Source: Escherichia phage vB_EcoM_PD328
Length of the DNA: 59,156 nucleotides
Sequence record: ON922918
Reading direction: 5' to 3' (one strand)
Position 1 is the first letter of the stretch. Every line of letters starts with the position of its first letter. Shown in pieces: positions 1-59,156 of the stretch. Made by a program: the position numbers and the translations under genes. Under the pieces are notes generated by a model, which ran no database searches, had not been told where the DNA came from, and saw only the letters and a program-made list of their open reading frames with translations.

Positions 1-2
1 AC

Positions 3-1394
3 ATGCAGAAGCTCCAGGACTTACCGTTCCCAGCGCATTGGGCGCTGTCCATAGAGCAGATTGCTATTGTGCGCTTCTACTGTATTAACGACCTTGATAC
101 AACAATGGCTCTGTTTAACTCACTGGAAGAGCAAATCCATCTACGTGAGATTATGAGTGAAGAGTATAAAGTAGATCTTCGCTCTAAATCTGATGCACAA
201 ATTGCAGAAGCTGTAATCCGTCATGAGATGAAGCAAATGCTGGGCTTTGTACCACAGAAAGGGATGGTGGAAGTCGGTAGAACCTTTAGATACAATCCTC
301 CAGTGTGGTTAGGTTTCCAGACGCCACTAATGAAGTCCGTATTTCAGGTGGTGCTTGACAGTTACTTCCGAGTTGCAGAAGATGGTAAAATTAAGCAACC
401 ATCCACAATGAACTCTCTGAAGTTTACAATCAACCAGACAACTTACAACATGGGTATCGGTGGTCTGCACTCGTGCGAAGAGTTAATGGAGATTGTACCA
501 TCTGAAGACGAAGAGATGTGGGATGCTGACGTAACATCGTACTACCCAATCTGTATCATTAACCAGCAACTGTATCCTGAACACCTGGGCCCGCGCTTTA
601 TAGATATCTTCGTTAAGATCGTAGAACGACGTATTGCAGCTAAGATGGCTCATGACGATAAGACTGCACAAACTCTTAAGATCGTTATTAACGGTTCTTA
701 TGGTAAGTTTGGTTCACCGTTCTCTATTCTGTATGCACCGCATCTTATTATTCAGACCACATTGACAGGTCAGTTAGCTCTACTTATGCTCATTGAAACA
801 CTGGAGCTTAACGGTATCCAGGTTGTTAGTGCTAACACAGATGGTATCGTTATTAAACCTTGCAAAGCTAAGAAGCAATTAATGACTGATATCATTAAGT
901 GGTGGGAAGCGACAACTGGCTTTGAAATGGAACTGAATCAGTACCTGCGCCTTAATTCTGCAAACGTTAACAACTACGTCGCAATTAAGGCGGATGGTAA
1001 AGCCAAGCGTAAAGGTTGGTTCGCAGAGACAGGCCTTGCTAAGAACGCGGAAGGTGAGATCATCATGGATGCTGTGGTTAATCTTCTCCGTGACGGTACG
1101 CCAATTGCTAAAACTATCACAGAGTGTCAGGACATTCGTAAGTTTGTTTGTATCAAGACAGCTAATGGTGGAGCTGCGTGGAATAGTGAGCCATTAGGTA
1201 AGGTTGTTCGCTGGTACTATACAAAAGAAGAAGTACCTGAAATACTGATAGTCAAGAGTGGGGGTCGTGTCGGTAAGACAGCAGGGGGTAAACCAATGAT
1301 GGAACTCACTGACCAGTTACCGCCAGATCTCAACCACGAAGTATACATAGCTAAAGCGGAAAAATTGCTGGAAAAACTCGCATACGCCGCTTAA
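3..1394 (+). CDS. DNA polymerase, 3' part (gene begins at 58452 and wraps across the window join)
   Basis: Family-B-like polymerase motifs in translation: DVTSYYPICII (motif A-like), KIVINGSYGKFG (motif B-like), SANTDGIVI (motif C-like), KADGKAKRKGWF (KxY-like). In frame with the ORF that starts at 58452 once the 125-nt terminal duplication is accounted for. Confidence 0.75.
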   Translation: MQKLQDLPFPAHWALSIEQIAIVRFYCINDLDTTMALFNSLEEQIHLREIMSEEYKVDLRSKSDAQIAEAVIRHEMKQMLGFVPQKGMVEVGRTFRYNPPVWLGFQTPLMKSVFQVVLDSYFRVAEDGKIKQPSTMNSLKFTINQTTYNMGIGGLHSCEELMEIVPSEDEEMWDADVTSYYPICIINQQLYPEHLGPRFIDIFVKIVERRIAAKMAHDDKTAQTLKIVINGSYGKFGSPFSILYAPHLIIQTTLTGQLALLMLIETLELNGIQVVSANTDGIVIKPCKAKKQLMTDIIKWWEATTGFEMELNQYLRLNSANVNNYVAIKADGKAKRKGWFAETGLAKNAEGEIIMDAVVNLLRDGTPIAKTITECQDIRKFVCIKTANGGAAWNSEPLGKVVRWYYTKEEVPEILIVKSGGRVGKTAGGKPMMELTDQLPPDLNHEVYIAKAEKLLEKLAYAA

Positions 1395-1395
1395 T

Positions 1396-1432
1396 AAAAA
1401 GTGGGCCAATACATTTGTACTGGCCCACAATA
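1396..1432. terminator. bidirectional hairpin between convergent polymerase and tail-fibre-assembly genes
   Basis: GTGGGCCA...TGGCCCAC inverted repeat flanked by an A-run upstream and AATAAAAT downstream; lies between convergent stop codons. Confidence 0.5.
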
Positions 1433-1464: not shown

Positions 1465-2043
1465 TTATTCTGGAGACTCAGGCCAGATAATATTCTGTGG
1501 ATCATTTTCATTTATGCGGTTGACAAGTACACGAAACTTTCTCCACGAATCCAACATTGAACTTTCTTCGTCAGTAGCTAGATTATAAGTTACAGCATCT
1601 TGTAAAATACTGATTTTATAATCTGCTAAATTAAGAAGATCTGTTTTGTGTTGTGTTGCATCTGCAACCGACTTAGCATGTTGTGCGTCCGGATCGTTTA
1701 CCCACATATTGCCGTTCCACTTCATGTGTTCACCATCGGGAGCGATATAAGTTACATTATCCGGAAGCGACCCAATTGTGGTTATTACTAAAGGAAGTCC
1801 AGTATCTTTATCATATACAACTTTCCCTCGGTGGTCTTCAAGTAAGATCCATACTTGACTTTCTGGTCTAAATATTGCCACGTGATTTTCTGGAGCCACT
1901 GGAGGCTCCATGTCTGTGCAACCTGCTGGAAGACCTGTGTTGGCTACTACATACGCTTCACGGGTTCCCACATATTCGCCAGTATCGCTGGAGTAGTCGT
2001 ACACGGTTACAGTCTGGTCTTCATTACTCATTTCAAAAGACAT
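1465..2043 (-). CDS. tail fibre assembly protein (Tfa-like chaperone)
   Basis: 192 aa; C-terminal region (KFRVLVNRI...IWPESP) resembles the conserved Tfa C-terminal domain; sits immediately downstream of the tail fibre gene, with ATG overlapping the fibre stop. Confidence 0.65.
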   Translation of the reverse strand: MSFEMSNEDQTVTVYDYSSDTGEYVGTREAYVVANTGLPAGCTDMEPPVAPENHVAIFRPESQVWILLEDHRGKVVYDKDTGLPLVITTIGSLPDNVTYIAPDGEHMKWNGNMWVNDPDAQHAKSVADATQHKTDLLNLADYKISILQDAVTYNLATDEESSMLDSWRKFRVLVNRINENDPQNIIWPESPE

Positions 2044-36858: not shown

Positions 36859-39408
36859 ATGCTGGAACTTTTTCCTCAAGAAATTAAACAATACGAACAG
36901 TGGGCTGTCTGCGGTTTTCATCCAGGTACATCATCAGAAAAACAACCTTATGTATGGGACGATGATTTAGGGGATATGGTCCCACTTCGTAAAGACGGCA
37001 ACGATAAAAAACCGTCTAACTTGCATTTACTAATGTCCTTTGAAGATGCGGAACGTTGTATTCGTTACTATAACGAAATCGGTCATAATCTGCGTCTAGG
37101 TTTCTATCTACTTCCAAGTGATCCGTTCTGTTGTATAGACATGGATATTAAAGACACCATGTCTGAAATGGAAAAGAAAGTTGCTGGCGAGCGATATAAG
37201 AAGATTGTTGAATCGTTCCACAGTTATACGGAAATTTCCAGAAGCGGTGATGGGTTGCATACATGGATTTATTCCATCCCTCAAGCTGGTAAGCGCCGTG
37301 ATGGTGTAGAGGTATATTCGCAGTATCGCTTTATTATCTGTACAGGTGATCACTGGGATGTTACTCCGCGTACTGTGTCCGGTGCTCCAGGTAGTGAAAG
37401 CGAAGGATATATTGCTAATCTCATTCATCAACTTATGTCAGAGATGAGTGAAATTAATGAATCCGATGGCTTCCAAATGTTGGAACTTACTGAAGAAGAT
37501 TTCAGTAATGATCCATATGCAATGGAGGATCAGGATGTTTATATCCAGTTATGCGAACAAGAAAACGGAACGTTGTTTAAACAGCTATGGGAAGGTCGTT
37601 GGAGAGCTGAAGAAGTTGATACTTCTATCGGTGAACGCTGTTTCCCTTCTCAGTCTGAAGCAGAATTTGCATTAATTGACTTTCTTTGCTTTAAGAGTAA
37701 GTACAATTTCCAGGTAAGACGTCTATTCATGTATTCACCAATGAGTAGTCGTTACGATGATTCACGTCGTATGCCTGGTGAAAAAATTAAGCGTCCGTAC
37801 CACCTGGATAGAATGATTCGCAACTATCGCTACGATGCCCATGTTAAATCTATGGGACTTATGCAGATAGTTCAGAATAACGTTAATGCAGCTATAGAGC
37901 GCACGGAGAAACTGCGTCAGGCAACTACACCAGAACGCCCACCTGAAGAGGTGTTGACCACAGATGGTAATTACACTGAAGAACAGGCAGACGGTTTAGC
38001 TTGGCCTCCAGGATTTATGGGCGAGGTTGCTCGTAATATGTATAAAGCGAGCTTGTTGCCTATTAAAGACATTAGTATTCTGTCTGCTCTTGCTTTATTT
38101 AGTGGTATGTGCGGTAAGGCGTGGAACACAGTTACACGAAGCGGTCTGAACAACTACTTTGTATTAATTGCACGTTCTGGTATTGGTAAAGAAGCGTTTC
38201 GCTCTAACATTGAAACCATTCTTTCTCAGGTGTCCAATTATGGCGGTCAGGACGGCCAGCAGATATTCGGTATTGAACGTGTTTTAGATACTAGTACCTA
38301 TGCGTCTGATGCTGCATTGCGCAAAGACGTCATTATGGATACATCGGTTATGTCTTGTGGCTCATCCATTAACTATAAGACTGAAGTCGGCGCGTTTTTC
38401 CGTAACGGTAAGATGGAAGTCGGTAAAGCTAAAGATATTATGGATGAAATGCTTTCCCTTTACGATAAGGGGCATTTCTATGCTTTCTCTGGTGGTTCAA
38501 AGCACTCTAGCAAAGATAATACAACCGCTGGTGGTAAGGTCAAGGCATATAGTTTTGCAGGTGAAACTACACCGGATGAATTTTACGGGAACGTTGATGA
38601 CCGCATGATGTCGAGTGGTTTTATGTCTCGTATTATTGCATGGGAATGTACAGCTAACAGGCCACTAATGAATAAGAGTATGCTCCTGGAATATCCAGAA
38701 GCAATTCTGCGCACTATTGGAGCTATCTATAAACAAGCTGTGCGTATTATGTCAGGGACTGCTCCATGTTATGTTGAAATGGAAGCAGAGGTACACGAAG
38801 CGTTTGATAACCTTGATAATGTTGTTGCGAAGTTCCTGAATAGCGGTAATGACGGTGAACAGGTACAGGATGAAGTAATTCGTCAGATGTACACAAGAAA
38901 GGCGTTGAAGGTATTGCGTATCGCCTCCCTTCTTGCTGTAGCGGATAACAGTGAGCGTCCTATTGTTACTATGGAACATTATCGTTGGGCTGAGTCATTT
39001 ATTGATCAGGGTAACGAGCGTTTCTTAGAGAAGCGTAATAGTGGGCAGATTGGCTCTACAGATAGTACCAGTCGTGAGAAAATAATGCTCAACTCTATCA
39101 AGAAGTTCTTGGATGGGGAAGTTAAAGCTGGCGTGTATAAACGGTTCCCGATGTTCAAGGGTGCGTTTATTGTTGCACGGAGTGACTTATGTACTTATTG
39201 TAGACAATTTAAAGCGTTCAAGCAGACAAGAAATGACAACATCCTGCAAGTCATAGACAATACAATCTATGGTTTAATGTCTATGGAAGTTCTTACTGAG
39301 ATGAGGCCAATGGACTTTTCAAGTTTCTTCGGTGCTGAGTTTACACCACCGAGAATGAAATGTTATTTGGTAGACATTGAAAGAATGAACGAGATTATTA
39401 AGTTATAA
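36859..39408 (+). CDS. DNA primase, AEP/PrimPol-like, with large C-terminal domain (putative primase-helicase)
   Basis: 849 aa; N-terminal region has a DxD-type motif (FCCIDMDIKD) typical of archaeo-eukaryotic primase folds; central degenerate P-loop-like ARSGIGKE; largest protein of the replication block. Confidence 0.45.
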   Translation: MLELFPQEIKQYEQWAVCGFHPGTSSEKQPYVWDDDLGDMVPLRKDGNDKKPSNLHLLMSFEDAERCIRYYNEIGHNLRLGFYLLPSDPFCCIDMDIKDTMSEMEKKVAGERYKKIVESFHSYTEISRSGDGLHTWIYSIPQAGKRRDGVEVYSQYRFIICTGDHWDVTPRTVSGAPGSESEGYIANLIHQLMSEMSEINESDGFQMLELTEEDFSNDPYAMEDQDVYIQLCEQENGTLFKQLWEGRWRAEEVDTSIGERCFPSQSEAEFALIDFLCFKSKYNFQVRRLFMYSPMSSRYDDSRRMPGEKIKRPYHLDRMIRNYRYDAHVKSMGLMQIVQNNVNAAIERTEKLRQATTPERPPEEVLTTDGNYTEEQADGLAWPPGFMGEVARNMYKASLLPIKDISILSALALFSGMCGKAWNTVTRSGLNNYFVLIARSGIGKEAFRSNIETILSQVSNYGGQDGQQIFGIERVLDTSTYASDAALRKDVIMDTSVMSCGSSINYKTEVGAFFRNGKMEVGKAKDIMDEMLSLYDKGHFYAFSGGSKHSSKDNTTAGGKVKAYSFAGETTPDEFYGNVDDRMMSSGFMSRIIAWECTANRPLMNKSMLLEYPEAILRTIGAIYKQAVRIMSGTAPCYVEMEAEVHEAFDNLDNVVAKFLNSGNDGEQVQDEVIRQMYTRKALKVLRIASLLAVADNSERPIVTMEHYRWAESFIDQGNERFLEKRNSGQIGSTDSTSREKIMLNSIKKFLDGEVKAGVYKRFPMFKGAFIVARSDLCTYCRQFKAFKQTRNDNILQVIDNTIYGLMSMEVLTEMRPMDFSSFFGAEFTPPRMKCYLVDIERMNEIIKL

Positions 39409-47677: not shown

Positions 47678-49681
47678 ATGTTCAAACTACGTGATTATCA
47701 GCAAGAAGCTGTAAATAGTACATTGCGCTATTTTATCAAGCATGGTGAAAAGTCAGGAAATCCTGTTATCTTGTTGCCTACAGGGACTGGTAAGTCCCTT
47801 GTAATTGCTGGTCTATTAAAGACAATTCATGATAATTGGGGTAGTACCCGCATGATGGTAATTACTCACGTAAAAGAATTGATAGACCAGAACCACGATA
47901 AGTTCAAGAAGTTATGGCCTGAAGCACCGACTGGTATTTATAGTGCTGGTATGGGTCGCAAGGATAAGAACGCAATGATAACGTTCGCAGGTATTCAGTC
48001 TGTTGCAAAACAAGCTAAATACTTTGAGGACGTTGATATTATTATAGTGGACGAATGTGACCTTATTAGTCCAAATCAGCAAACAAGTTATCAGAAGTTC
48101 TTTGCACATATCCGTGAAAAGAACCCATATCTAAAGATTATCGGTCTTACTGCTACAAGCTGGCGTCTTGGTTTTGGTTCTATTATCAAAGATGACTATG
48201 CTCCTAATGCTCTATTTGATGAAATCGTATTTAACGCGTGTACTGTAGAGTGCTTCAACTGGTTTATTGATGAAGGTTATCTGGTTCCATTAGTACCACG
48301 TAAAACAAAGAAAGAGTATGATGTAAGTGGTGTTCATACTCGAGGCGGTGAGTTCATTGAAAGTGAACTTCAGAAGGTTGTAAACGACCCTGATGTAACA
48401 CGCCATTTGTTAGATGATGCGATTAGTATTGCGGAAGAAGAGGGCAGAATGAGTTGGCTTATCTTTTGTGCTGGTGTAGACCATGCAAAAGATGTAAAAG
48501 ACTATCTCAATGAACGCGGTATTAGTTGCGAAGTTGTAACTGGTGATACACCGAAAGCCTTGCGTGACCAGTACCTCATTGACTTTAAAGCTGGTCGTTT
48601 GCAGGCAATAGCGAACAACAACGTATTGACCACAGGCTTTGACCATCCTGGTCTTGACTTGATAATTGGTATGCGCCCGTCCCAATCTTCCCGCTTATGG
48701 GTTCAGATGCTTGGACGTGGTACTCGACCTGATTATGCTGATGGTTTTGATTTGACCACAACGGAAGGTCGTTTGCAAGCTATCTCCGCTTCGCATAAAC
48801 AGAACTGTCTTGTACTAGACTATGCGGGTAATACAAGACGTCTTGGACCTATTAACGACCCTGTAATTCCTAAGCGTCCAGGGCAGAAAGGAAAGTCCGC
48901 TGCACCTGTTAAAGAATGCCCGGTATGTAAAACCTGGAACCATGCGTCGGTTCGCTATTGTGGTGGGTTAAAACCATTCGATACAAGCAGTATGTCCCAT
49001 GAAGAAATACTCTATCTTCAAGGATTAGGGTATACCATTACAAATAATAAAGCGTGTCGTGCTGGTTATTGCGGTCATGAGTTTACTTTTGAGAAGAAAC
49101 TGATGGCGAGTGCTAGTACGAAAGCTATTATCAAGAATGATTTACCAGTCACTGAGGTATTGAAAGTTGATATGGTGAGTTACTATCGTCATGAGAACAG
49201 GGGTGACCGTTCTAAGCCACCAACACTTCGTGTCGATTATCTTTGTGGCTCACAAACTATTCAACAATATATTTGTCTGTTCCATACTGGCTTTGCAGGC
49301 AAGAAAGCGCGTAACTGGTGGCGCGAGCATTGCAGCTTGGCAATCCCAGCCAACATTGACGAAGCTCTTAATGTGGTCAGCCAACTCCGTGTACCGACGC
49401 ACATCTATGTCAACTTGAAGGGTAAGTTCCCTGAAGTGTTGAATAGTTGTTATGACGGTAGTGAGTTTGGTAAGAAAGAAGCAACTAATGAACGTCCGGT
49501 TGTACAAATCGCGGCAATGAATGGCTTGTCCCAGTTTGGTGGAAGTTATACGAATAAGTTTGATGAAGACGAGCAGACTGATTCTCGTACGACAGTGTTG
49601 CATTCTACGTCTAATCAACCTATTCTTACTGGTAACGGTAAAGAGCTACCACCAGATTTTGATGACGACATTCCATTTTGA
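47678..49681 (+). CDS. SF2 DEAD/DEAH-box-type helicase with SSB-like C-terminal tail
   Basis: Walker A LPTGTGKS, motif II VDECDL, helicase C-domain motifs; protein ends ...LPPDFDDDIPF, identical to the conserved C-terminal tip of E. coli SSB. Confidence 0.7.
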   Translation: MFKLRDYQQEAVNSTLRYFIKHGEKSGNPVILLPTGTGKSLVIAGLLKTIHDNWGSTRMMVITHVKELIDQNHDKFKKLWPEAPTGIYSAGMGRKDKNAMITFAGIQSVAKQAKYFEDVDIIIVDECDLISPNQQTSYQKFFAHIREKNPYLKIIGLTATSWRLGFGSIIKDDYAPNALFDEIVFNACTVECFNWFIDEGYLVPLVPRKTKKEYDVSGVHTRGGEFIESELQKVVNDPDVTRHLLDDAISIAEEEGRMSWLIFCAGVDHAKDVKDYLNERGISCEVVTGDTPKALRDQYLIDFKAGRLQAIANNNVLTTGFDHPGLDLIIGMRPSQSSRLWVQMLGRGTRPDYADGFDLTTTEGRLQAISASHKQNCLVLDYAGNTRRLGPINDPVIPKRPGQKGKSAAPVKECPVCKTWNHASVRYCGGLKPFDTSSMSHEEILYLQGLGYTITNNKACRAGYCGHEFTFEKKLMASASTKAIIKNDLPVTEVLKVDMVSYYRHENRGDRSKPPTLRVDYLCGSQTIQQYICLFHTGFAGKKARNWWREHCSLAIPANIDEALNVVSQLRVPTHIYVNLKGKFPEVLNSCYDGSEFGKKEATNERPVVQIAAMNGLSQFGGSYTNKFDEDEQTDSRTTVLHSTSNQPILTGNGKELPPDFDDDIPF

Positions 49682-49928: not shown

Positions 49929-50651
49929 ATGTATATCTTAGTTGATTATGATCGGATGCAGGTATTAGCCAAACATCCAAACTTCCAACGTCTTCATGAG
50001 TATGGAATTCTGTGTTGTAGCGAAAGCTCTGTAGTCCTTCCGTTGGAAGTTGAAGAACTGTATAAAGAGTTTGATGATGTGCAAATGCAACTCTTGTACA
50101 TCAACTTAACGGGTAACAAGCAAGGTGCTTTATATCCAAAGAAAATGATCAGTAAGATCATTCATTATTTTTTAAATGAGATACCGGAGACAGTAATAGA
50201 TGCGGATGTGGCTGAACAAGCGGACTGGGCAATTGCTAGTAATAAAGAGGGTGAGTGCATGTACCGCGAAGGCAGCTCTGTTCCAGATTTGGGGGAGGAG
50301 CCTAATATTCAAGTACGGAATGATAGTTCATTGGAATCCACCATCATTGACGGCCCAACCGTACAAACAAACATGGGCATACAACGGGCATGGACACCGA
50401 CAAAAGAGCGGCAAGGTACTAGCACACCGGCAACCGAAAAACGTGCCGCAACGTCGCGTACAGCCGGCACTCGCGATATTATTTTCGCTATTGCTGACGA
50501 AATGTGGAAAGAAGCTGGTGAACCTCGTGACAAGAAGGAAATCCTTCAGCTTAGAAAACAAATGATGGATCGTTTAGAGGCACAAGGTGTGAAGCGTAAT
50601 ACATCAAGTAATACATTAGGGGTCTGGGTAAAAGAACGTGGCTTAAATTAA
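49929..50651 (+). CDS. hypothetical protein
   Basis: 240 aa ORF; basic C-terminal region. Confidence 0.4.
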   Translation: MYILVDYDRMQVLAKHPNFQRLHEYGILCCSESSVVLPLEVEELYKEFDDVQMQLLYINLTGNKQGALYPKKMISKIIHYFLNEIPETVIDADVAEQADWAIASNKEGECMYREGSSVPDLGEEPNIQVRNDSSLESTIIDGPTVQTNMGIQRAWTPTKERQGTSTPATEKRAATSRTAGTRDIIFAIADEMWKEAGEPRDKKEILQLRKQMMDRLEAQGVKRNTSSNTLGVWVKERGLN

Positions 50652-50747: not shown

Positions 50748-51572
50748 ATGGCTAAAGAGAAAACTCCAGAGCAACTGGAAGCAGAAGAAGCAGCAAAGAA
50801 AGCAGCAAAAGAAGCTGAAGCAAAGAAAAAACGTGAAGCTGAAGAAAAAGCAGCACGTGAATTGCAGGCTAAAGTTGATGCCGCAATGAACGAAGCCACT
50901 GCCGGTTACAATGTGATCGAAGGTGTTGTGTCCGCTGTTAAAGAACAGTTTGACACTCTGCACGAAGGTTCGTTGCTGGACGAAGTTAAAGCAGTTGAAG
51001 GCGTAGTTACCGCTCAACTGAAGACCGCTAAAGAAGGTCTGAAAGCTGTTAAAGCAGCAGCACGTAAAGTTAAAGACAACGATCAACTGAAAACTGCCGT
51101 TGCAGCATCTGAAGATCTGGTTTCCGGTGTTGAAGCCACTCTGAAAGATGTTAAAGGCCGTGTATCCGCTGCCCGCGAAGCCACTAAAGCCGCTGAAAAA
51201 GCGAAACGTGACGCTGAACGCGCTGAGAAGAAACGTCTGCAAGACGAAGAGCGCGCTCGTAAAGCAGCAGAACGCGAAGCTAAGAAAGAGCCGGAACAGA
51301 ACGGTATTCGTAAGCCTGGTGTTGGTACTCTGTGCCGTGCTGCATGGGACATCTTTGATGCTGTTACCCTGGAGCTGGGCCAGACTGCACCGATCAGCTA
51401 CGTTCTGCCGGTTGCACTGGACAAAGGCCTGAACGAAGCGAACGTCAAAGCAGAATACGCTCGCTGGAAGAAATACATGGGCATTACTGGTCGCGTATCA
51501 GTTCCAGTACCTGCTAATATTGCACAGGCGGCCGCTAACGTAGAAATTCCGTCTCAGAAATCTGCAGAGTAA
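50748..51572 (+). CDS. Lys/Ala/Glu-rich coiled-coil protein of unknown function
   Basis: 274 aa; highly charged helical N-terminal two-thirds, distinct C-terminal domain of about 90 aa; own promoter and terminator; codon usage typical of highly expressed genes. Confidence 0.45.
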   Translation: MAKEKTPEQLEAEEAAKKAAKEAEAKKKREAEEKAARELQAKVDAAMNEATAGYNVIEGVVSAVKEQFDTLHEGSLLDEVKAVEGVVTAQLKTAKEGLKAVKAAARKVKDNDQLKTAVAASEDLVSGVEATLKDVKGRVSAAREATKAAEKAKRDAERAEKKRLQDEERARKAAEREAKKEPEQNGIRKPGVGTLCRAAWDIFDAVTLELGQTAPISYVLPVALDKGLNEANVKAEYARWKKYMGITGRVSVPVPANIAQAAANVEIPSQKSAE

Positions 51573-51596: not shown

Positions 51597-51622
51597 AAGG
51601 GGCATTTACTGCCCCTTTGTTA
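51597..51622 (+). terminator. rho-independent terminator
   Basis: AAGGGGCA-TTTAC-TGCCCCTT hairpin followed by TGTTATC. Confidence 0.5.
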
Positions 51623-51640
51623 TCTTACCCCGAGGTTCAA

Positions 51641-52405
51641 ATGTTTGCACAAGCCATTATCGCCCACCACTGGGCTCAAGCCAAATTTGGAAATCATATG
51701 AAAATTATTAATACTCAGGAACCTGAGAAGTTAGTTCGTGAACGTGGTATTCTTGACGTACATTCCATTTTTCATACCATTCAAGGCGAAGGCCCATTTT
51801 GTGGTCAACCTGCCGTATTCGTTCGATTAGCTGGTTGTAACCTGCAATGCCCAGGTTGCGATACAAACTATACGTCCAATCGTAAGAAAATGAGTCACAG
51901 TGATATTTGGCAAGAAATTGTTCGTGTCACTGGTGAAGCCAAGACTAAATTAGTTGTCATTACTGGTGGCGAACCTTTCCGTCAACCTGAAGTTGCTAAT
52001 TTTATCAACTACCTTATTGATATGAAAGGATATCGTGTGCAGGTTGAAACTAACGGAACTATGCCTATCCCGCGTGAACTCAACTATAACTGTGTGGTAG
52101 TATGTAGTCCTAAGGCAGCAAAGATTCACCCTAGCGTTTCCGCTCGAGCAAATGCTTTCAAATATGTAATGAAAAGCGGAAACGTCAACGAGGAAGATGG
52201 ATTACCGTTGCAGGCACTGGATCACCGTGCAACACCATTTATCGCACGTCCGCCTGTACACTTTAAAGGTAATATTTATCTTCAGCCTATGGATGAACAG
52301 GACGACGATGCTAATAAAGCAAACGCTCAAGCTGTCGTTAAATACGCAATGAAACATAATTATATCGTGCAATTGCAAGTTCATAAGTATTTAGGGGTTG
52401 AGTGA
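51641..52405 (+). CDS. queE: 7-carboxy-7-deazaguanine synthase (QueE, radical SAM)
   Basis: N-terminal HTIQGEGPFCGQPAVFVRLAGCNLQCPGCDT (QueE-type cysteine cluster) and VVITGGEPF; start taken at the ATG at residue 9 of the track ORF. Confidence 0.75.
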   Translation: MFAQAIIAHHWAQAKFGNHMKIINTQEPEKLVRERGILDVHSIFHTIQGEGPFCGQPAVFVRLAGCNLQCPGCDTNYTSNRKKMSHSDIWQEIVRVTGEAKTKLVVITGGEPFRQPEVANFINYLIDMKGYRVQVETNGTMPIPRELNYNCVVVCSPKAAKIHPSVSARANAFKYVMKSGNVNEEDGLPLQALDHRATPFIARPPVHFKGNIYLQPMDEQDDDANKANAQAVVKYAMKHNYIVQLQVHKYLGVE

Positions 52406-52656
52406 TGCGTGTAAAAGCTCTGTTTAAGACTACTAAAGTTATTGAGTTTCATGGTATTAAATTGACAGTTCCAAATTGGGTCACCTATCTTGCTTGTGAT
52501 AAAAACGGAACTCTGATGGGTTATGAAGGCGGGCCAATACATTGTAATGTGGAATATGGTCGTTGGGTTCCTGATATTGATGTTGGTTATTACGAGAAGA
52601 TTGCAAAAGTTGATCTTGAAGGGTTAGATTGGACTCGAACGTTGATTAAGGTATAG
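52402..52656 (+). CDS. hypothetical protein
   Basis: 84 aa ORF, start overlaps the QueE stop. Confidence 0.35.
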   Translation: MMRVKALFKTTKVIEFHGIKLTVPNWVTYLACDKNGTLMGYEGGPIHCNVEYGRWVPDIDVGYYEKIAKVDLEGLDWTRTLIKV

Positions 52657-52773
52657 AATGAAGTTATACGTTTTTGAAAACGCGTGGATGATCCCTGCCG
52701 CTAATGATCATTATGCGGGCGACGGTCAGCGTGCTAAAAGATACAATGTGTTCAACTAATAAGGTAAATTATT

Positions 52774-53526
52774 ATGATCAAATATGTCCAATTACTTGGT
52801 GAGATTGTTCCAGAAGATGTATTGAATAAGTGTCTGTTCGATGAAGACGGATTTGTAAAACATTATGTAGATACACCTTCACAGTTTGCATCTCACTCGG
52901 CTCTTGGATTTGTAATTCGAGCTGGATATGCAGTGGATGTGTTGAACGACATGAGTCCTACAGTCACTGTTTTTGTTGAAGGTATGGACGTACATGATCT
53001 TATGAATTTAAAGACCGTTTATAATACTCACGTCACGCCACCACGTAATGCACTTTACAAATGGCGTATCAATACTTCTGTTAGCAGAAGCCAGAAAGCA
53101 GCAGAAGAGAATGCCAAGAAGTATACGACATCTACTCAGAAATTAGCTTGTATGATGGACGATCTACTTAAAAACGCCTTTAAAGTTGAGCGGGACAAAG
53201 AAGGTGAGCCAGAAGTATTCATTAATGAAGCATTAATTAAAAAGGATCGTATCCAGGAGATTAAAGCTCCGCGTCCGAATAAATATATGCGCAAAATTAA
53301 AACTTTTGAATCGCATGATATTAACGGTAGCCCGATTGAAATTGATGTATGGGTTGACGTGTACGACGTAATTAAAGCATTCAATGTAACCAGTGGGCCC
53401 ATGCAACATACACTGAAGAAAGTGCTGTGTGCTGGTGAGCGCGGTCATAAAGACTTGCTGCAAGACCTCAACGACATTATTGCATCCGTTGAGCGTGAAA
53501 TTGAAATGGTTAAGGAAGGTAATTAA
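52774..53526 (+). CDS. hypothetical protein
   Basis: 250 aa ORF between queE and the Gat-QueC gene; no recognised motif. Confidence 0.4.
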   Translation: MIKYVQLLGEIVPEDVLNKCLFDEDGFVKHYVDTPSQFASHSALGFVIRAGYAVDVLNDMSPTVTVFVEGMDVHDLMNLKTVYNTHVTPPRNALYKWRINTSVSRSQKAAEENAKKYTTSTQKLACMMDDLLKNAFKVERDKEGEPEVFINEALIKKDRIQEIKAPRPNKYMRKIKTFESHDINGSPIEIDVWVDVYDVIKAFNVTSGPMQHTLKKVLCAGERGHKDLLQDLNDIIASVEREIEMVKEGN

Positions 53527-53527
53527 T

Positions 53528-54943
53528 ATGTGCTCTATCTTTGGTGTTATTACTAACGGTCAACCTGAAAGTCTTATCATTCGTAACGATATCAATGATC
53601 TTATTAAGGCTAGTATCAACCGTGGTCGTGACGGTCTTGGTGTACGCTTTACGCATGGTGACCACAGTATGCACCCGCAACGTATCGTCAGTGTCGGTAA
53701 GCAAACATCGCTGGAACGTCTTGTTAAAGTCGGGCGCATTACATCTCACGCTGGAGCTATTGGTAGCTTCACAATGATTGGTAACGCTCGCGCCGAACCG
53801 ACTACAGAGTGGGTTATTGACAAGAATGAGTGGGACCAGCAACCGTATCATATGGATGGTTGGACTATTGTTCATAACGGTACTATTGCGAACGATAAAG
53901 ACCTTCGTACCTATGCACTACAGACTAAAATTGATAGTGCTGCCATTGTTGAACAGTTAGCAGAATGTACACTTTCAGCGGATGAAATGTGTTTGTCTGA
54001 CTTTAATTACCTGTACAGTGTATTTCATGAAGTTATTCGTAAATTGAAAGGTAGCTTCGCAATCCTTGCAACACATGATTCCTTTCCGGGATGTGTGTTT
54101 ACAGCATGTAATTATCGTCCAATCTGGATCGGTAAGACTGATACTGGTATGTATTTCGCCAGCCAGGAAGACATGCTACCAACCCGTGCGATTAAGCAGA
54201 TGCTGAAACCTTATTCATGTAATGTGGTTACATCTACTGATGTATGCAATGAAGTTGATCTTATTCCAAATAAACAGACTCAACGCGCGTTAGTTGTCGC
54301 CAGTGGTGGCATGGACAGCACGGTGGCAGCTCAGATGTGCAAGTCCAATGGTCTGGAAGTCACTCTGATTAACTTCCAGTATGGTTGTCGTGCAGAAACT
54401 AATGAGTTAAAGGCTATTCGTAAGATTGCGGAAGTGATGGAAGTTCCGTTAGTTGAGTTCCCAATTCCAATCTACGATAAGAAAGACAGCCCGTTATTTG
54501 ATCAAGATGCTGCAATTGCTGGTGGCGAAGAAGGTGCTGAGTTTGCCCACGAATGGGTTCCAGCTCGTAACCTTGTGATGCTTTCTGTTGCTACTGCATA
54601 CGCAGAAGCTAACGGTTTCGACTATATTGTTCTTGGTAACAACCTAGAAGAAGCTGGAGCCTATCCGGACAACGAGCCTGAGTTTATTAACCGCTTTAAT
54701 CAGGTGCTACCATTCGCTGTAGGCGACGGTAAGCGCGTTGAAGTGCTCATGCCTGTAGGTAACTTAATGAAGCATGAAATTGTCGCTACAGGCCTGCGTT
54801 TAGGGGCCCCGCTTGAGCACACCTGGAGCTGTTACCGTAACGGGGATTTGCATTGTGGTACTTGCGGCCCTTGCATGATGCGTCGGACTGCGTTTAATAT
54901 TAATAACGCACAAGAAGTTATTAAATACGAAAGCGAGGCGTAA
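53528..54943 (+). CDS. queC: glutamine amidotransferase-QueC fusion protein (Gat-QueC)
   Basis: Starts MCSIFGV (N-terminal Cys nucleophile of class II amidotransferases); C-terminal half has the QueC PP-loop VVASGGMDST and zinc-binding CYRNGDLHCGTCGPC. Confidence 0.75.
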   Translation: MCSIFGVITNGQPESLIIRNDINDLIKASINRGRDGLGVRFTHGDHSMHPQRIVSVGKQTSLERLVKVGRITSHAGAIGSFTMIGNARAEPTTEWVIDKNEWDQQPYHMDGWTIVHNGTIANDKDLRTYALQTKIDSAAIVEQLAECTLSADEMCLSDFNYLYSVFHEVIRKLKGSFAILATHDSFPGCVFTACNYRPIWIGKTDTGMYFASQEDMLPTRAIKQMLKPYSCNVVTSTDVCNEVDLIPNKQTQRALVVASGGMDSTVAAQMCKSNGLEVTLINFQYGCRAETNELKAIRKIAEVMEVPLVEFPIPIYDKKDSPLFDQDAAIAGGEEGAEFAHEWVPARNLVMLSVATAYAEANGFDYIVLGNNLEEAGAYPDNEPEFINRFNQVLPFAVGDGKRVEVLMPVGNLMKHEIVATGLRLGAPLEHTWSCYRNGDLHCGTCGPCMMRRTAFNINNAQEVIKYESEA

Positions 54944-55267
54944 ATGAATAAATTGAGCAGCTTGGCAAGGATGGGTATAGCCCACAAGTGTTTCGGTAAT
55001 CCAATTCCTCAACAGGCTTATGATTTAATCGAAGCCGTTGAAGAAGCTATTTTGGACTTCAATCCTCAGTTGAAAGTGAATAAAGAAATTTACAAAGGAC
55101 ATAAATCACTTGAAGACATGATTAAAAGTCACATATCCGTATGGCGAGATGCGTTAGAAAAACTACATGAAGAGTCAACAGAACCGGATGATATAAGTTA
55201 TTATGCTCATGAACTTAGAGCACTCGCAGAGATTGAAGCAGCAGTTAAAGCAAAGTTAGGAGAATAA
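54944..55267 (+). CDS. hypothetical protein
   Basis: 107 aa ORF between the queC and queD homologues. Confidence 0.35.
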   Translation: MNKLSSLARMGIAHKCFGNPIPQQAYDLIEAVEEAILDFNPQLKVNKEIYKGHKSLEDMIKSHISVWRDALEKLHEESTEPDDISYYAHELRALAEIEAAVKAKLGE

Positions 55268-55268
55268 A

Positions 55269-55790
55269 ATGGGTTACACTGTTATTCGTTCACATGAGAT
55301 TTGCGCTGGTCATCGTGTTGTAGGGCATGAAAGTAAATGTCGCCACCTTCACGGTCACAACTATAAGTTCCATTTTAAAGTTGCGCCGAAGAAGACATTG
55401 TCGGAAGGTTACGTTAAGTCTGTAAGTGGATTTGCTCTAGAAGGATCCTTGGACGATGTAGGTCGCGTTATCGACTTTAGTGTGGTTAAAACTACACTCT
55501 GCCAATGGTTGGAAGATAACTGGGATCATAAGTTCCTGCATTGGAATCGTGATAATTTGATTGACGCTTTAAAAATTGCAGCAAGTCGCCCGAGTTGCCC
55601 TCTGGAACATGAAGACCATGAGCATTTCTTAAACTCGTTGGTAGCTTTACCATTCAACCCAACTGCGGAAAACTTAGCTGCATATATGGTTGACGTAATT
55701 GGTCCTCAACTGCTTGACCAATATGGTGTTGAATTGGTAGAATGCACCATTGAAGAAACGTCCAAATGTCATGTTAACTATTGCAAATAA
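55269..55790 (+). CDS. queD: 6-carboxy-5,6,7,8-tetrahydropterin synthase (QueD-like)
   Basis: CAGHRVVGHESKCRHLHGHNY zinc-binding Cys/His pattern typical of QueD/PTPS. Confidence 0.7.
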   Translation: MGYTVIRSHEICAGHRVVGHESKCRHLHGHNYKFHFKVAPKKTLSEGYVKSVSGFALEGSLDDVGRVIDFSVVKTTLCQWLEDNWDHKFLHWNRDNLIDALKIAASRPSCPLEHEDHEHFLNSLVALPFNPTAENLAAYMVDVIGPQLLDQYGVELVECTIEETSKCHVNYCK

Positions 55791-55816
55791 TTGACCACAC
55801 AAGGAAACTGCAAACC

Positions 55817-56431
55817 ATGAATGAATTTACAAAGATGACAAACCGAGCAGAAATTTCGCACAGTATTGAAAAGATTTTAAAGTTGATTGAAGGTGGCGAT
55901 GACTTGCGTGAAGGTTTAGTTGAAACTCCATTGCGCGTCGCTAAAGCATTTGAGACGTGGTTCGGGGGTTATTCTGTCGATATCGCATCCCTGTTCAAGA
56001 CATTTGAAGATGGTGGGGAAAACTGCGATGAAATGGTCATCGTCCGTGATATCCCTGTCTACAGTCATTGTGAGCATCATATGGCTCCTATTATTGGTCA
56101 TGCTGTGGTCGGGTATGTCCCGAATGGAAAAATTGTTGGCCTAAGTAAGTTATCTCGTGTGGTTGATGCTTTTAGCCGTCGTTTGCAAGTTCAGGAGCGT
56201 CTGACTAACCAGATTGCGGATGCTATCGTGGAACACTTAGACCCAAAAGCTGTGTGTGTTTACATTGATGCAAAACATATGTGTATGGAGTCGCGCGGTG
56301 TTAAACAAGTGTGTGGAAGCTCAACCATTACTAAAGCATTCCGTGGGCGTACTGCATTGGGCGATGGTGTATTACCTGATGTGACGGGTGACACATGGCG
56401 TCGGGAATTTCTTGAAGCGTGTAAAAAGTAA
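55817..56431 (+). CDS. folE: GTP cyclohydrolase I (FolE)
   Basis: Conserved SHCEHHMAP active-site motif and GTP cyclohydrolase I-like flanking regions; start at the ATG at residue 13 of the track ORF. Confidence 0.75.
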   Translation: MNEFTKMTNRAEISHSIEKILKLIEGGDDLREGLVETPLRVAKAFETWFGGYSVDIASLFKTFEDGGENCDEMVIVRDIPVYSHCEHHMAPIIGHAVVGYVPNGKIVGLSKLSRVVDAFSRRLQVQERLTNQIADAIVEHLDPKAVCVYIDAKHMCMESRGVKQVCGSSTITKAFRGRTALGDGVLPDVTGDTWRREFLEACKK

Positions 56432-56466
56432 CTGATTTGCGAATCATACATTATCTTTAATATAAT

Positions 56467-56491
56467 AAGCGCCTACGGGCGCTTATTTGTT
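56467..56491 (+). terminator. rho-independent terminator between folE and the DpdA-like gene
   Basis: AAGCGCC-TACG-GGCGCTT hairpin followed by ATTTGTT. Confidence 0.6.
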
Positions 56492-56500
56492 AGGTGAACA

Positions 56501-57454
56501 ATGCACAGAGAAGACATCAACTATACCTTTCAGATTTATATGGCTGCCGTGTATACGAACAGCTATAAACCGGGAATGAACCGCTATGTTAAACTCAACG
56601 AACAAGAAAAACGTGTTGTCGAAAATATTCCAAACATTCTTGAATCCTGGCACTACGTTGGAAAGCAATCATATGTTGATGCCATGCGTGCCGATGGGGC
56701 CAAGATATTCCTCGACTCCGGAGCGTTCTCAGCTTACACTTTGGGAGTTACGTTATCAGTTAAAGAATACTGCGATTATATCCAACGAAACATAGATATC
56801 ATTCGTGTAGAGGATGGTTCACTTATGGCTTCTGTACTCGATGGTATCGGAGATCCACTTCAAACGTGGCGCAACCAGGAAGAGATGGAAGCCAGGGGTG
56901 TAAGACCTTTACCATGCTTCCACGCGGGTGAACCTTTTGAATACCTGGACCATTATGTGCGAAATTATGAATACATCACTCTTGGTGGTCTTGTTGGAGC
57001 GAGTACACAACAACTCCAGGTATGGTTGGACAGGGTATGGGATAAACACCTTGTGGACGGTAGTGGGCGCGCGAAGATTAAAGTTCACGGATTTGGTATT
57101 ACGTCCCGTCCACTTATGGAGCGTTACCCGTGGTACTCTTGTGACTCATCCTCCTGGATCCAATCTGCAGCGTTCGGTGCTATTGAAACGCCTAAATGGG
57201 GGCCAATGCAGGTATCAGAAAAGTCTCCGTCACGTCACTATCAAGGGCAGCATATTTGTAACCTTTCAGAAATAGAACAGAATAACGTTCTACGCTACTT
57301 AGAGGAGTCAGGTTTCACATACGAGCGACTTTCAACGATATACGAATCACGCGCTGCATATAATTTATGGGCGTATGGTGTGGTCAACGCTATGATTCTT
57401 GCTAACCACAATGGGAAGTTCAACGAACGTCTCCAGGATTTATTTGACGAGTAA
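56501..57454 (+). CDS. dpdA: DpdA-like 7-deazaguanine DNA transglycosylase (TGT superfamily)
   Basis: TGT-fold-like motifs IFLDSGAFSA and VHGFG; immediately downstream of the preQ0 biosynthesis genes. Confidence 0.6.
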   Translation: MHREDINYTFQIYMAAVYTNSYKPGMNRYVKLNEQEKRVVENIPNILESWHYVGKQSYVDAMRADGAKIFLDSGAFSAYTLGVTLSVKEYCDYIQRNIDIIRVEDGSLMASVLDGIGDPLQTWRNQEEMEARGVRPLPCFHAGEPFEYLDHYVRNYEYITLGGLVGASTQQLQVWLDRVWDKHLVDGSGRAKIKVHGFGITSRPLMERYPWYSCDSSSWIQSAAFGAIETPKWGPMQVSEKSPSRHYQGQHICNLSEIEQNNVLRYLEESGFTYERLSTIYESRAAYNLWAYGVVNAMILANHNGKFNERLQDLFDE

Positions 57455-57462
57455 GGTTACTT

Positions 57463-58455
57463 ATGGATTTACTTGATGCTTTAAAGTTTGTTCAGGGTTC
57501 TGTAGCTAAGAAAGAACTCCAGGAAGGTTTAACTCACTTCCGTATTGTTGATGGTACTGTTCGCGGGTTCAACGGAACTATTTCATTGTGTAGCCCAGTA
57601 CCTTTGAACATTGACTGTACACCGAAAGCTGAACCAATGCTCAAGGCTATTGCAGCATGTGACGAAGCTGTACAGATGACAATGTTAGCGAACGGTAAGT
57701 TGAGCATTAAGTCTGGTGGCTTTAAGGTTAGTGTAGATACTCTTCAGAAACCAACTGCACACGTAGAGCCAGAAGGAACGATTCACGAAATAGACGGTCA
57801 GCTTTTTCTTAACGGTTTAAGCCGCGTAACGCCGTTTATAAGCGACGATGCTTCCCGCCCGTGGTCTTGTGGCGTGCTGGTAAAACAGGGCAGCATGTAC
57901 GCGACCAACAACGCTAGTATTATACAATATTGGTTCGGTGCTGTGTTCCCTGTTGATTGTGTTGTACCACGTATGGCCATCAAAGAATTATTGCGCATTA
58001 AAAAGCCACCAGTAAGAATTCAATGTACAGATACCAGTATGACATTTCACTACGAAGACGGTTGCTGGTTGCGTACCCAATTGCTGGAATTAAAGTGGCC
58101 CAACATTGACAAGATAATTGAGCGTACAGAAAAGGGGTCTGACGTCTATACGCTTGATACTGAACTTTTTAACTGCTTAGAGAAAATAAAACCGTTCTGT
58201 GAACGTGATGGGCGTATTTATATGGAAAATGGCGTCGTGCGTACCCATTACAACGAGCTGGACGGTGCTAGTGCAATGTTCCGTGAATCCAAGTCAATTG
58301 GCGTGTATAATATAGATCTTATTATGCAGTTGAAAGGACTTGCAACGGATTGGGACGCTTCTCGTTTCAATGAAAAGGACGAAAGGGGTCTTTCAACTCC
58401 TATTATTTTTTATGGTGAAAATCTACGTGGGGTAATTGTAGGATTTCGTCTATGA
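57463..58455 (+). CDS. DNA polymerase sliding clamp, beta-clamp (DnaN)-like (putative)
   Basis: 330 aa; pattern similarity to bacterial beta clamp over three repeated domains; directly upstream of, and overlapping by 4 nt, the DNA polymerase gene. Confidence 0.45.
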   Translation: MDLLDALKFVQGSVAKKELQEGLTHFRIVDGTVRGFNGTISLCSPVPLNIDCTPKAEPMLKAIAACDEAVQMTMLANGKLSIKSGGFKVSVDTLQKPTAHVEPEGTIHEIDGQLFLNGLSRVTPFISDDASRPWSCGVLVKQGSMYATNNASIIQYWFGAVFPVDCVVPRMAIKELLRIKKPPVRIQCTDTSMTFHYEDGCWLRTQLLELKWPNIDKIIERTEKGSDVYTLDTELFNCLEKIKPFCERDGRIYMENGVVRTHYNELDGASAMFRESKSIGVYNIDLIMQLKGLATDWDASRFNEKDERGLSTPIIFYGENLRGVIVGFRL

Positions 58456-59156
58456 GAAAAGATGCTATTGGTTTCTTTTGGGAGGATTTACCTCCCGCTA
58501 AGAAAGAGAAGAAACAGAAAGTAAAACGTCAACCAGTTGAAAGGGTATGGGAGCGCCCAGACTACCTTCCAGGTCTTGATGCAGCAATGCGTTTTGCAGC
58601 TAACGATCCGCGTATGACAGACGGTGAGTTAGTGGAGATGTATTTTGCACAAGAAACGTTCGTATACGATATCGAATGCTATAAGAACTATTTTCTTGTA
58701 GCGTTTAAAGGGGTTAAGTTCGGTAAGGTTTATTATCTAGAAATGACTGCCGGTCAGACACTTGACACGGAAAAGTATGAATGGATAATGAAGAACTTTC
58801 GTACCGTTGGTTTCAACTCAAGAAACTACGATAATACGATGACATTCCTTGCCATTGCGGGTCTGACTGTTGACAAGCTGAAAGAAGCAAGTGACAGGAT
58901 GATCCAGGAAGAGTGGGCCCCGTGGGACGTTCTCAACAGTTTTGGTGTGGAGCAGTTTTGGATTGACCACATTGACGTTCAAGAAGTAGCGCCTGGCTTC
59001 GGTTCACTGAAGCTGTATGGTGGCCGTATGCACATGCAGAAGCTCCAGGACTTACCGTTCCCAGCGCATTGGGCGCTGTCCATAGAGCAGATTGCTATTG
59101 TGCGCTTCTACTGTATTAACGACCTTGATACAACAATGGCTCTGTTTAACTCACTG
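58452..59156 (+). CDS. DNA polymerase, 5' part (continues at position 3 across the window join)
   Basis: ORF runs to the window end with no stop; contains an exonuclease-I-like FVYDIE motif; last 125 nt identical to the first 125 nt and in frame with the 3..1394 ORF. Confidence 0.7.
   Translation, partial: MRKDAIGFFWEDLPPAKKEKKQKVKRQPVERVWERPDYLPGLDAAMRFAANDPRMTDGELVEMYFAQETFVYDIECYKNYFLVAFKGVKFGKVYYLEMTAGQTLDTEKYEWIMKNFRTVGFNSRNYDNTMTFLAIAGLTVDKLKEASDRMIQEEWAPWDVLNSFGVEQFWIDHIDVQEVAPGFGSLKLYGGRMHMQKLQDLPFPAHWALSIEQIAIVRFYCINDLDTTMALFNSL

Follow-up and report, generated by a model that had tools for sequence, protein, structure and literature searches.

The polymerase gene and its surroundings

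A gene for a family-B DNA polymerase (PolB) lies across the two ends of the window, by which we mean the whole 59,156-nucleotide stretch of Escherichia phage vB_EcoM_PD328 DNA (ON922918) that was analysed and that is 94-96% identical to the DNA of Nonagvirus phages. The genes, the motifs and their coordinates are summarized in Table 1. The first and last 125 bp of the window are identical and represent the overlap left by assembling a genome that is circular or permuted; the unique circular length after removal of the duplicate is 59,031 bp. When the overlap was counted once, the open reading frame started with ATG at 58452, continued in frame past the window end and stopped at the TAA of 1392-1394, giving 657 amino acid residues; the codon at position 3 repeats that at 59034 (Met195). 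When the window end was joined directly to position 1, the frame shifted and a stop codon followed after 252 residues; we discarded this join and removed the 125-bp overlap instead. The preliminary description of this DNA, made from the letters alone, had reported an open reading frame from 58452 that spans the window join with about 657 residues. Our stitching gave the same result, and the length indicates that the overlap had been handled correctly, since the naive join gives only 252 residues.

The start codon overlaps the stop codon of the upstream gene, that of the clamp-like processivity factor, as ATGA, and AGGA is located 7 nt upstream of the ATG. The start is also backed by conservation, with G7, W10 and D12 invariant in 81 homologues. 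The order of clamp gene and polymerase gene is found in phages Seurat and PaMx42 as well. On the other side of the gene, a terminator scan scored the hairpin as a minus-strand one, in accordance with the position of the T-run (one found, 0.2 expected). The cluster for modified dG (dG+) that adjoins the polymerase gene is represented in the window by DpdA, FolE, QueD, Gat-QueC and QueE.

Table 1. Features of the polymerase locus and related genes in the window
Feature	Position	Strand	Remarks
Large primase	36859..39408		phrog_3022, E = 1e-244
DpdA	56501..57454		Part of the dG+ cluster adjoining PolB
Clamp-like DNA polymerase processivity factor, 330 aa	57463..58455	+	phrog_947, E = 8.5e-82; so annotated in SE1
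PolB 5' part, aa 1-235	58452..59156	+	Contains Exo I and Exo II
Exo I, D73-I-E75	58668..58676	+	D73 and E75 invariant in 121 sequences
Exo II, N122-S-R-N-Y126-D127	58815..58832	+	D127 invariant in 121 sequences
Exact duplicate of 59032..59156	1..125	+	Re-encodes aa 195-235, including Exo III
Exo III, Y220-C-I-N-D224	78..92	+	Y220 and D224 invariant in 121 sequences
PolB 3' part, aa 236-657 and TAA (1392..1394)	126..1394	+	Contains motifs A, B and C; phrog_1252
Motif A, D368-A-D370-V-T-S-Y-Y-P	522..548	+	D370 is the predicted metal-binding Asp
Motif B, K420-I-V-I-N424-G-S-Y-G428	678..704	+	Aligned to motif B of 1s5j, Pol II and Pol alpha
Motif C, S470-A-N472-T473-D474-G475	828..845	+	SANTDG, canonical YGDTDS
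KxY-motif equivalent, N517-N518-Y519	969..977	+	Aligned to KKNY of 1s5j; N517 and Y519 invariant
GC-rich hairpin	1401..1428	.	12-bp stem, 7 GC pairs; between PolB stop and convergent gene
Convergent gene downstream of PolB	1465..2043	-	

Catalytic motifs of the polymerase

The three exonuclease motifs, Exo I (DxE), Exo II (Nx2-3(F/Y)D) and Exo III (Yx3D), are all present, in this order and N-terminal to the polymerase domain, which is the arrangement expected of a PolB. Motif A (DxxSLYPS) appears as D370-V-T-S-Y-Y-P, with D370, Y375 and P376 invariant, and motif B follows the pattern Kx3NSxYG (canonical KxxxNSxYG), with K420, N424, G425 and G428 invariant. The situation is different in motif C, where the stretch SANTDGIVI is encoded at 828..854. 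In phmmer and hmmsearch alignments with PDB sequences, N472-T-D474 was placed on the DTD of Sso Dpo1, E. coli Pol II and Pol alpha. The codon AAC at 834..836 (N472) corresponds to the first Asp of YGDTDS and the codon GAT at 840..842 (D474) to the retained Asp, so that the Thr and the second Asp are kept and the first Asp is replaced by Asn. The profile searches and PDB alignments agree in this respect with the preliminary description, which had noted the replacement of one canonical acidic residue by Asn. The canonical Lys of the KxY motif is likewise replaced by Asn (NNY). Each of the residues N, T, D and G of motif C was invariant in all 121 aligned homologues (44-99% identity), and N472 is therefore not a sequencing error. 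The invariant catalytic set comprises D73, E75, D127, Y220, D224, D370, K420, N424, G428 and D474.

In solved ternary complexes of PolBs, the metal ligands are the Asp of motif A and the second Asp of motif C, and we take D474 to be the equivalent of the latter. Standard two-metal catalysis via D370 and D474 is the most likely mode of action of this polymerase. In RB69 polymerase, D411, D621 and D623 have been described as a 'catalytic triad' with a direct or indirect part in the binding of metal (PMC3792054), and by analogy the loss of the first motif-C Asp may still alter metal handling. Our literature search for the biochemistry of RB69 D621A found nothing relevant, and our view of the first Asp is accordingly based on this general statement, on the ligands in the solved complexes and on what PMC7544198 says of piPolB and PolB2. 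We also considered D368, two residues before D370, as an obligatory compensating carboxylate, comparable to the D(K/R) idea for PolB2. D368 is present in 118 of the 121 homologues (D370 in 121), and an extra Asp at this position was found in seven of ten distant lineages. This role of D368 was rejected, because the residue is absent in Ln-9, Efquatrovirus L1, pKp383, LW32 and HelPrimPolB, all of which are without the first motif-C Asp. It is conceivable, but in our view rather unlikely, that Asn472, NNY and the frequent extra Asp at motif A -2 together define a functionally distinct active-site variant. Such a variant would be common to the whole crAss-like/9g-like PolB assemblage, which here amounts to over 1,100 records from phages and thousands of proteins from metagenomes, and divalent-metal handling, fidelity or primer-terminus contacts would possibly be altered in it.

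Note that the loss of one motif-C Asp once led to the prediction that PolB2 is inactive (PMC7544198). The same loss, together with the replacement of the KxY Lys, could suggest an inactivated or specialised PolB, for instance one of the translesion type like archaeal PolB2 or a structural pseudo-polymerase like the C-terminal half of Pol epsilon. However, the remaining catalytic residues, those of the polymerase as well as those of the exonuclease, do not vary among sequences of 44-99% identity, whereas PolB2 has lost its Exo motifs. Moreover, this is the single DNA polymerase annotated in the near-identical genome of SE1, a processivity factor accompanies it, and tblastn showed it to be retained in over 1,100 records from phages. 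An inactivated or specialised enzyme is therefore very unlikely. 

The open reading frame very probably encodes the ordinary replicative PolB of a 9g-like (Nonagvirus) coliphage, with Asn472 as a signature of its assemblage that is unrelated to dG+. The protein would be the single replicative, primer-dependent PolB of the phage, predicted to be catalytically active and to have an intact 3'-5' proofreading exonuclease. Its probable partners are the clamp-like processivity factor, with which it is co-translated, and the SF2 helicase and primase of the same genome.

Distribution of the NTD motif and the modified-dG question

NTD was found in ten further phages (Seurat, PaMx42, RcGingersnap, Ln-9, crAss cr4_1, Sasha, Vibrio 138, Efquatrovirus L1, pKp383 and Barba) and also in Acinetobacter B9, Flavobacterium FPSV-D5 and Lactococcus LW32, giving 13 further lineages in all. 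These lineages include crAss-like phages and phages of Leuconostoc, Enterococcus, Vibrio, Klebsiella, Acinetobacter, Rhodobacter and Pseudomonas. An apparent 'SADTG' of Pseudomonas phage PIP (Nipunavirus) was disregarded; the polymerase region of this record is divided into many small open reading frames and looks frameshifted. The earlier proposal of a divergent polymerase lineage was borne out, and NTD occurred in all the members that we sampled from a very broad assemblage of phage PolBs. The replacement of the first motif-C Asp by Asn472 is most likely an ancient and fixed signature of this assemblage, including crAssphage, as far as the aligned sequences suggest.

The preliminary description had also proposed that the Asn is an adaptation to a modified-dG template, in other words to copying or making 7-deazaguanine (dG+) DNA. 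The location of the polymerase gene next to the dG+ cluster, and the modification of G in both Nonagvirus and Seuratvirus, are in line with this proposal. However, NTD is invariant across all sampled lineages, and its invariance in the clade is independent of the modification genes. We examined the complete genomes of three NTD-bearing phages, Ln-9 (Leuconostoc), PaMx42 (Pseudomonas) and vB_EfS_L1 (Enterococcus), for modification genes, and none of DpdA, FolE, QueD, QueC and QueE was detectable in any of the three. PaMx42 has the same module of Cas4 exonuclease, helicase, clamp and PolB as the window, without the dG+ cluster. In 9g, dG+ has been associated with DpdA, and 7-deazaguanines were reported not to inhibit polymerases (PMC6884629). 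Since NTD is clade-wide and includes genomes without 7-deazaguanine genes, the proposal is unsupported and we regard it as highly improbable. The lack of any sign of polymerase adaptation to dG+ DNA in our results is consistent with the link to DpdA and with the tolerance of polymerases to 7-deazaguanines.

For the window itself the motif finding matters little, and the useful results are the negative ones. At the level of the assemblage, a lineage which is among the most abundant phage polymerase lineages and includes crAssphage has a non-canonical motif C, apparently without biochemical characterisation: our non-exhaustive literature search found no biochemically characterised member of the crAss-type/9g-type PolB clade. 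An easily grown coliphage of the 9g type would lend itself well to biochemical work on NTD-bearing PolBs.

Family assignment and comparison with known polymerases

The protein matched phrog_1252 'DNA polymerase' in PHROGs (E = 8e-228). Its AF2 model (pLDDT 91.8, pTM 0.86) has the PolB fold, with its N-terminal, Exo, palm, fingers and thumb domains, and resembles archaeal PolB, Pol II and Pol alpha; in a Foldseek search of the PDB with this model the top 50 matches were all family-B polymerases with a probability of 1.00 and E-values down to 1.7e-15. The PDB sequence matches with E < 0.1 were also all PolBs, except for one thymidine phosphorylase (E = 0.09). The Pfam PolB models remained below the gathering threshold (PF03175, 15.8 and 25.8 bits; PF00136, 11.7 and 23 bits, for score and threshold, respectively) because the lineage is divergent from those models. 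The assignment to family B, which had been made in the preliminary description, thus rests on PHROGs, the PDB alignments and the fold, and the sub-threshold Pfam scores were not used.

The best Pfam match was DNA_pol_B_2 (PF03175, E = 0.0068), which could point to a protein-primed PolB of the phi29/PRD1 type, whose hallmarks are the TPR1/TPR2 insertions, a terminal protein and linear DNA bearing inverted terminal repeats. However, this match covers only 40 residues around motif B and is below the threshold, the structural neighbours in the Foldseek top 50 are PolBs that depend on a primer, both a large primase and a clamp are encoded in the genome, a terminal protein is annotated in none of the relatives examined, and the assembly closes on itself; we regard a protein-primed enzyme as very improbable. 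That the family was mis-assigned, with NTDG as a non-catalytic segment of a family-A or other fold, was a concern of the preliminary description to which the sub-threshold Pfam scores and the annotation of some related records as 'DNA polymerase I' (PSV3) might lend weight, but the chance of this is next to nil: NTD aligns with DTD, and the Exo motifs I-III as well as motifs A and B have the pattern and order of family B. The family-A signature, with a DYSQIELR-like motif A, RxxAKxxNFGxxYG as motif B and HDE as motif C, does not apply to the protein; Pfam DNA_pol_A gave no match even at E <= 1, and no family-A structure occurred among the PDB sequence matches or the top 50 Foldseek matches.

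The gene is the already known DNA polymerase gene of Nonagvirus, and the motif deviation has also been described in the PolB literature (PMC7544198). The same gene is annotated as 'DNA polymerase' in the Nonagvirus phages JenP1, SE1, BRET and 9g (Queuovirinae). The protein is 99.2% identical in amino acid sequence to that of the JenP1 gene (tblastn) and 99% identical to that of P0001 (8 substitutions in 657 residues), the differences within Nonagvirus being few and conservative, and the SE1 polymerase also has 657 residues. These relatives share the order DpdA, clamp and polymerase, although SE1 has an extra 561-bp open reading frame between clamp and polymerase, which is absent from the window. 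The canonical solved PolBs (Sulfolobus Dpo1, 1s5j; 9°N, KOD and Tgo of Thermococcales; E. coli Pol II; Pol alpha) have the same fold, with Foldseek E-values of about 1e-15 to 1e-12, share the Exo-plus-Pol architecture, and are alignable in motifs B and C. In contrast, they are only 11-14% identical to the window PolB, which has SANTDG in place of YGDTDS and NNY in place of KxY, and which is shorter, with 657 residues compared with about 760-850.

Deviation of motif C is accepted within PolB for the crAss-like, HelPrimPolB, piPolB, PolB2 and PolB_SITDG groups (PMC7544198), and a non-canonical motif C does therefore not exclude membership in PolB. The piPolBs and archaeal PolB2 are without the first MotifC Asp, as the window PolB is, but form separate PolB clusters. 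The piPolBs are highly active despite the missing Asp (PMC7544198), and PolB2, with degenerate Exo motifs unlike the intact ones here, is described as acting in translesion synthesis (PMC7544198; PMC8764526). HelPrimPolB of actinophages (for example, Gordonia phage Rickmore and Arthrobacter phage Arcadia) shows weak homology (phrog_4210, E = 6.5e-25; hmmsearch, E = 6e-22 and 9e-16) and likewise lacks the first motif-C Asp, but has KTDS, with Lys and not Asn at this position. It is a protein of about 1,300 residues annotated as 'DNA primase/polymerase', with an N-terminal helicase and PrimPol fusion (PMC7544198), whereas the window PolB is a stand-alone protein.

In motif C the window PolB corresponds to the crAss-like PolBs, a divergent group of the EpsilonN-like clade in which MotifC and KxY are profoundly different from those of the other EpsilonN-like PolBs (Kazlauskas et al. 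2020, PMC7544198). Both deviations occur in the window PolB (NTDG and NNY), and the crAssphage entry in the supplement of that study reads SANTDGIVIK, letter-for-letter the same motif C. In a pairwise comparison by tblastn, crAss-like phage cr4_1 matched with E = 1e-44 and was 26% identical across 80% of the query length. The true Crassvirales enzymes are only about 26% identical to the window PolB, and we infer that the 9g-type enzymes probably belong inside the named crAss-like group.

The polymerase gene and its family

The window is a Nonagvirus genome (9g-like, Queuovirinae). Its ends are duplicated, positions 1..125 being an exact copy of 59032..59156 (125 bp). The duplication is an assembly overlap of a circular or permuted genome, so that the genome, closed into a circle with the repeat counted once, measures 59,031 bp and features near either end occur twice. 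The polymerase ORF begins with ATG at 58452, preceded by AGGA; this start shares ATGA with the stop codon of the gene before it, and the frame leaves the window end. The Met195 codon at 59034 reappears at position 3, and the preliminary description was therefore right in continuing the ORF in frame there; stitched with the overlap counted once, the two halves hold a frame of 657 aa ending with TAA at 1392-1394. A naive end-to-start join gives a frameshift and a stop after 252 aa. The polymerase gene converges on the following minus-strand gene, and between the two lies a GC-rich hairpin with a 12-bp stem, which was scored by the scan as a minus-strand intrinsic terminator and may terminate both transcription units. 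In Salmonella phage SE1, an extra 561-bp hypothetical ORF (gp86; locus L001, 10864..11424) separates the processivity-factor and polymerase genes, whereas in the window the two overlap directly (58452..58455).

Features of the window and motifs of the polymerase
Feature	Window positions	Residues or family
Motif C	828..845	S470-A-N472-T-D474-G
Hairpin	1401..1428	
Minus-strand gene	1465..2043	
Large primase	36859..39408	
SF2 helicase	47678..49681	
Conserved ORF	49929..50651	phrog_7864
Conserved ORF	50748..51572	phrog_11298
QueE-like radical SAM protein	51617..52405	
Conserved ORF	52774..53526	phrog_18443
Gat-QueC	53429..54943	
ORF	54944..55267	
QueD	55269..55790	
FolE	55781..56431	
DpdA	56501..57454	
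Clamp-like processivity factor	57463..58455	phrog_947 (E 8.5e-82)
N-terminal peptide	58452..58571	1-40
Exo I		D73-I-E75
Exo II		N122..Y126-D127
Exo III		Y220..D224
Motif A		D370-VTSYYP
Motif B		K420-IVINGSYG

The DNA of the polymerase region is 94-96% identical to that of JenP1, SE1, BRET, JenK1 and 9g, Nonagvirus relatives whose records name the gene DNA polymerase or 'DNA polymerase B region'. At the protein level, identity is 99.2% to the JenP1 gene product and 99% to the database cluster P0001, and the protein matched phrog_1252 'DNA polymerase' in PHROGs (E 8e-228). Its scores against the Pfam models of family-B DNA polymerases (PolBs) were below threshold, owing to the divergence of the lineage. 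In a sequence search of the PDB, the significant matches were family-B polymerases, the best being Sulfolobus Dpo1 (1s5j, E 9e-9); the family profile searched against PDB sequences also matched, with E values near 1e-5, E. coli Pol II and Pol alpha. In every PDB alignment (Dpo1, Pol II, Pol alpha), the query 'ANTDG' was aligned on 'GDTDS'. The AlphaFold2 model, built from an alignment of 81 sequences, has high confidence (mean pLDDT 91.8, pTM 0.86). When it was compared with PDB structures by Foldseek, the 50 best matches were all PolBs (Pyrobaculum, 9°N, KOD, Tgo, Pfu, Pol II, Pol alpha, ASFV; probability 1.00, E 1e-15 to 1e-12). These alignments and the predicted fold confirmed the assignment to family B and excluded a family-A polymerase, the outcome that had been named as refuting it; the suggestion of a divergent polymerase lineage was correct, and the motifs reported at the outset, including the motif C variant, are all present in the 657-aa ORF.

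The N-terminal peptide is strongly conserved, with G7, W10, D12, W33 and P40 invariant in the 81 sequences. The first ~20 residues have low confidence in the model (10-residue block means of 48, 65, 82 and 88), and tblastn matches to PaMx42-type relatives begin at about residues 42-55, leaving the peptide uncovered. It could bind a partner, for example the clamp, helicase or primase.

Distribution of the motif C variant

A protein search gave 7,938 significant homologues with 8,000 candidates scored. In the best 120 homologues and the query (44-99% identity), N472, T473, D474 and G475 are invariant, as are D370, K420, N424, G428 and the exonuclease carboxylates. The polymerase gene was detected by tblastn in 1,124 of 50,697 phage records, from many host genera. 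Motif C, read from polymerases extracted from individual phage lineages, is SANTDG in Seurat (Seuratvirus); SGNTDG in PaMx42 (Septimatrevirus) and RcGingersnap (Casjensviridae); QVNTDG in Leuconostoc phage Ln-9; QANTDG in cr4_1 (crAss-like) and Sasha (Sashavirus); QCNTDG in Vibrio phage 138 (unclassified) and Barba (Barbavirus); QSNTDC in vB_EfS_L1 (Efquatrovirus); QTNTDG in pKp383 (Jedunavirus) and Lactococcus LW32 (Teubervirus); QSNTDG in Acinetobacter B9 (unclassified); and QINTDG in Flavobacterium FPSV-D5 (Fipvunavirus). NTD is present in all of these lineages, and the Asn is thus an ancient trait that is fixed across a very large assemblage of phage PolBs. The KxY motif is replaced by (V/I)N(N/S/D)Y in all lineages read. 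The weakest relatives are actinophage proteins of ~1,300 aa that carry the label 'DNA polymerase' or 'DNA primase/polymerase'; these HelPrimPolB-type fusion polymerases, from Gordonia phage Rickmore and Arthrobacter phage Arcadia, have KTDS, in which the first Asp is likewise missing and Lys takes its place.

Two records have interrupted genes. In Pseudomonas phage PIP (Nipunavirus; OR687155.1, 31435..37277), the polymerase region is annotated as a series of very small 'DNA polymerase B region' ORFs and matches the family profile as five fragments in different frames, which looks like a frameshift-ridden record rather than biology. The FPSV-D5 gene (MW442825.1, 39311..44316) lies in two ORFs that differ in frame and are separated by a gap; its Exo part begins near locus position 1186 and the part for palm and thumb near 3183, which suggests an intervening element or a frameshift.

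The deazaguanine genes and the replication module

Genes of the pathway for 7-deazaguanine-modified DNA (dG+) are present just upstream of the polymerase (compare the SE1 annotation). The proposal that the Asn is an adaptation to modified dG was not supported: the NTD polymerase was detected in Ln-9, PaMx42 and vB_EfS_L1, whose whole genomes gave no match (E<=0.01) to QueE, Gat-QueC, QueD, FolE or DpdA, in agreement with their annotations. Published work agrees: in phage 9g, dG+ is associated with DpdA and takes the place of up to 27% of dG, and polymerases are reported not to be inhibited by 7-deazaguanines (PMC6884629). In PaMx42 (locus L013, 23972..29951), the Cas4 exonuclease, helicase, clamp and PolB genes, homologous to those of the window, are contiguous without dG+ genes, whereas in Nonagvirus the deazaguanine cluster (51617..57454) lies between helicase and clamp. 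This arrangement suggests that the cluster was inserted into an older replication module, one in which the polymerase already carried NTD.

Two ORFs within the cluster, 52774..53526 and 54944..55267, have no assigned function. The three conserved ORFs in or beside this region gave no Pfam match, or matched only PHROGs of 'unknown function'; the C-terminal half of 52774..53526 matched an ATPase PHROG weakly.

Proposed function and comparison with known polymerases

The exonuclease site and motifs A and B are intact, and the second motif C Asp is kept. The clamp-like gene adjoins the polymerase gene, primase and helicase genes are present, and the near-identical SE1 genome is annotated with a single DNA polymerase. 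The enzyme would be the replicative, primer-dependent, proofreading polymerase of the phage, with two-metal catalysis probably through D370 and D474. In PolBs of established structure (RB69, phi29, Pol delta and archaeal enzymes), the metals are bound by the motif A Asp and the second motif C Asp. For RB69, D411, D621 and D623 have been described as a triad that takes part 'directly or indirectly' in binding metal (PMC3792054). Because Asn, isosteric with Asp, keeps the ability to hydrogen-bond, the loss of one charge at the second-shell first position is plausibly tolerated. D368, two residues ahead of the motif A Asp, occurs in 118 of 121 close homologues; as an obligatory compensating carboxylate it was rejected, being missing from several NTD or KTD lineages.

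The gene and its motif deviation are real but already known: annotated polymerases of Nonagvirus phages share 99% identity with the gene, and the deviation is on record in the PolB literature. A non-exhaustive literature search found no biochemical characterisation of any enzyme in the assemblage. Other PolB groups also lack the first Asp, namely PolB_SITDG, B2/G2 and the primer-independent piPolBs, and the last polymerise efficiently; archaeal PolB2 has a single conserved motif C Asp (Kazlauskas et al. 2020, PMC7544198), and a PolB2 enzyme is reported to act in translesion synthesis (PMC8764526). Kazlauskas et al. assign the 'crAss-like' group to the EpsilonN-like PolB clade, within which it is divergent and departs strongly in MotifC and KxY; a crAssphage sequence in their supplementary dataset reads SANTDGIVIK, identical to the motif in the window (PMC7544198).
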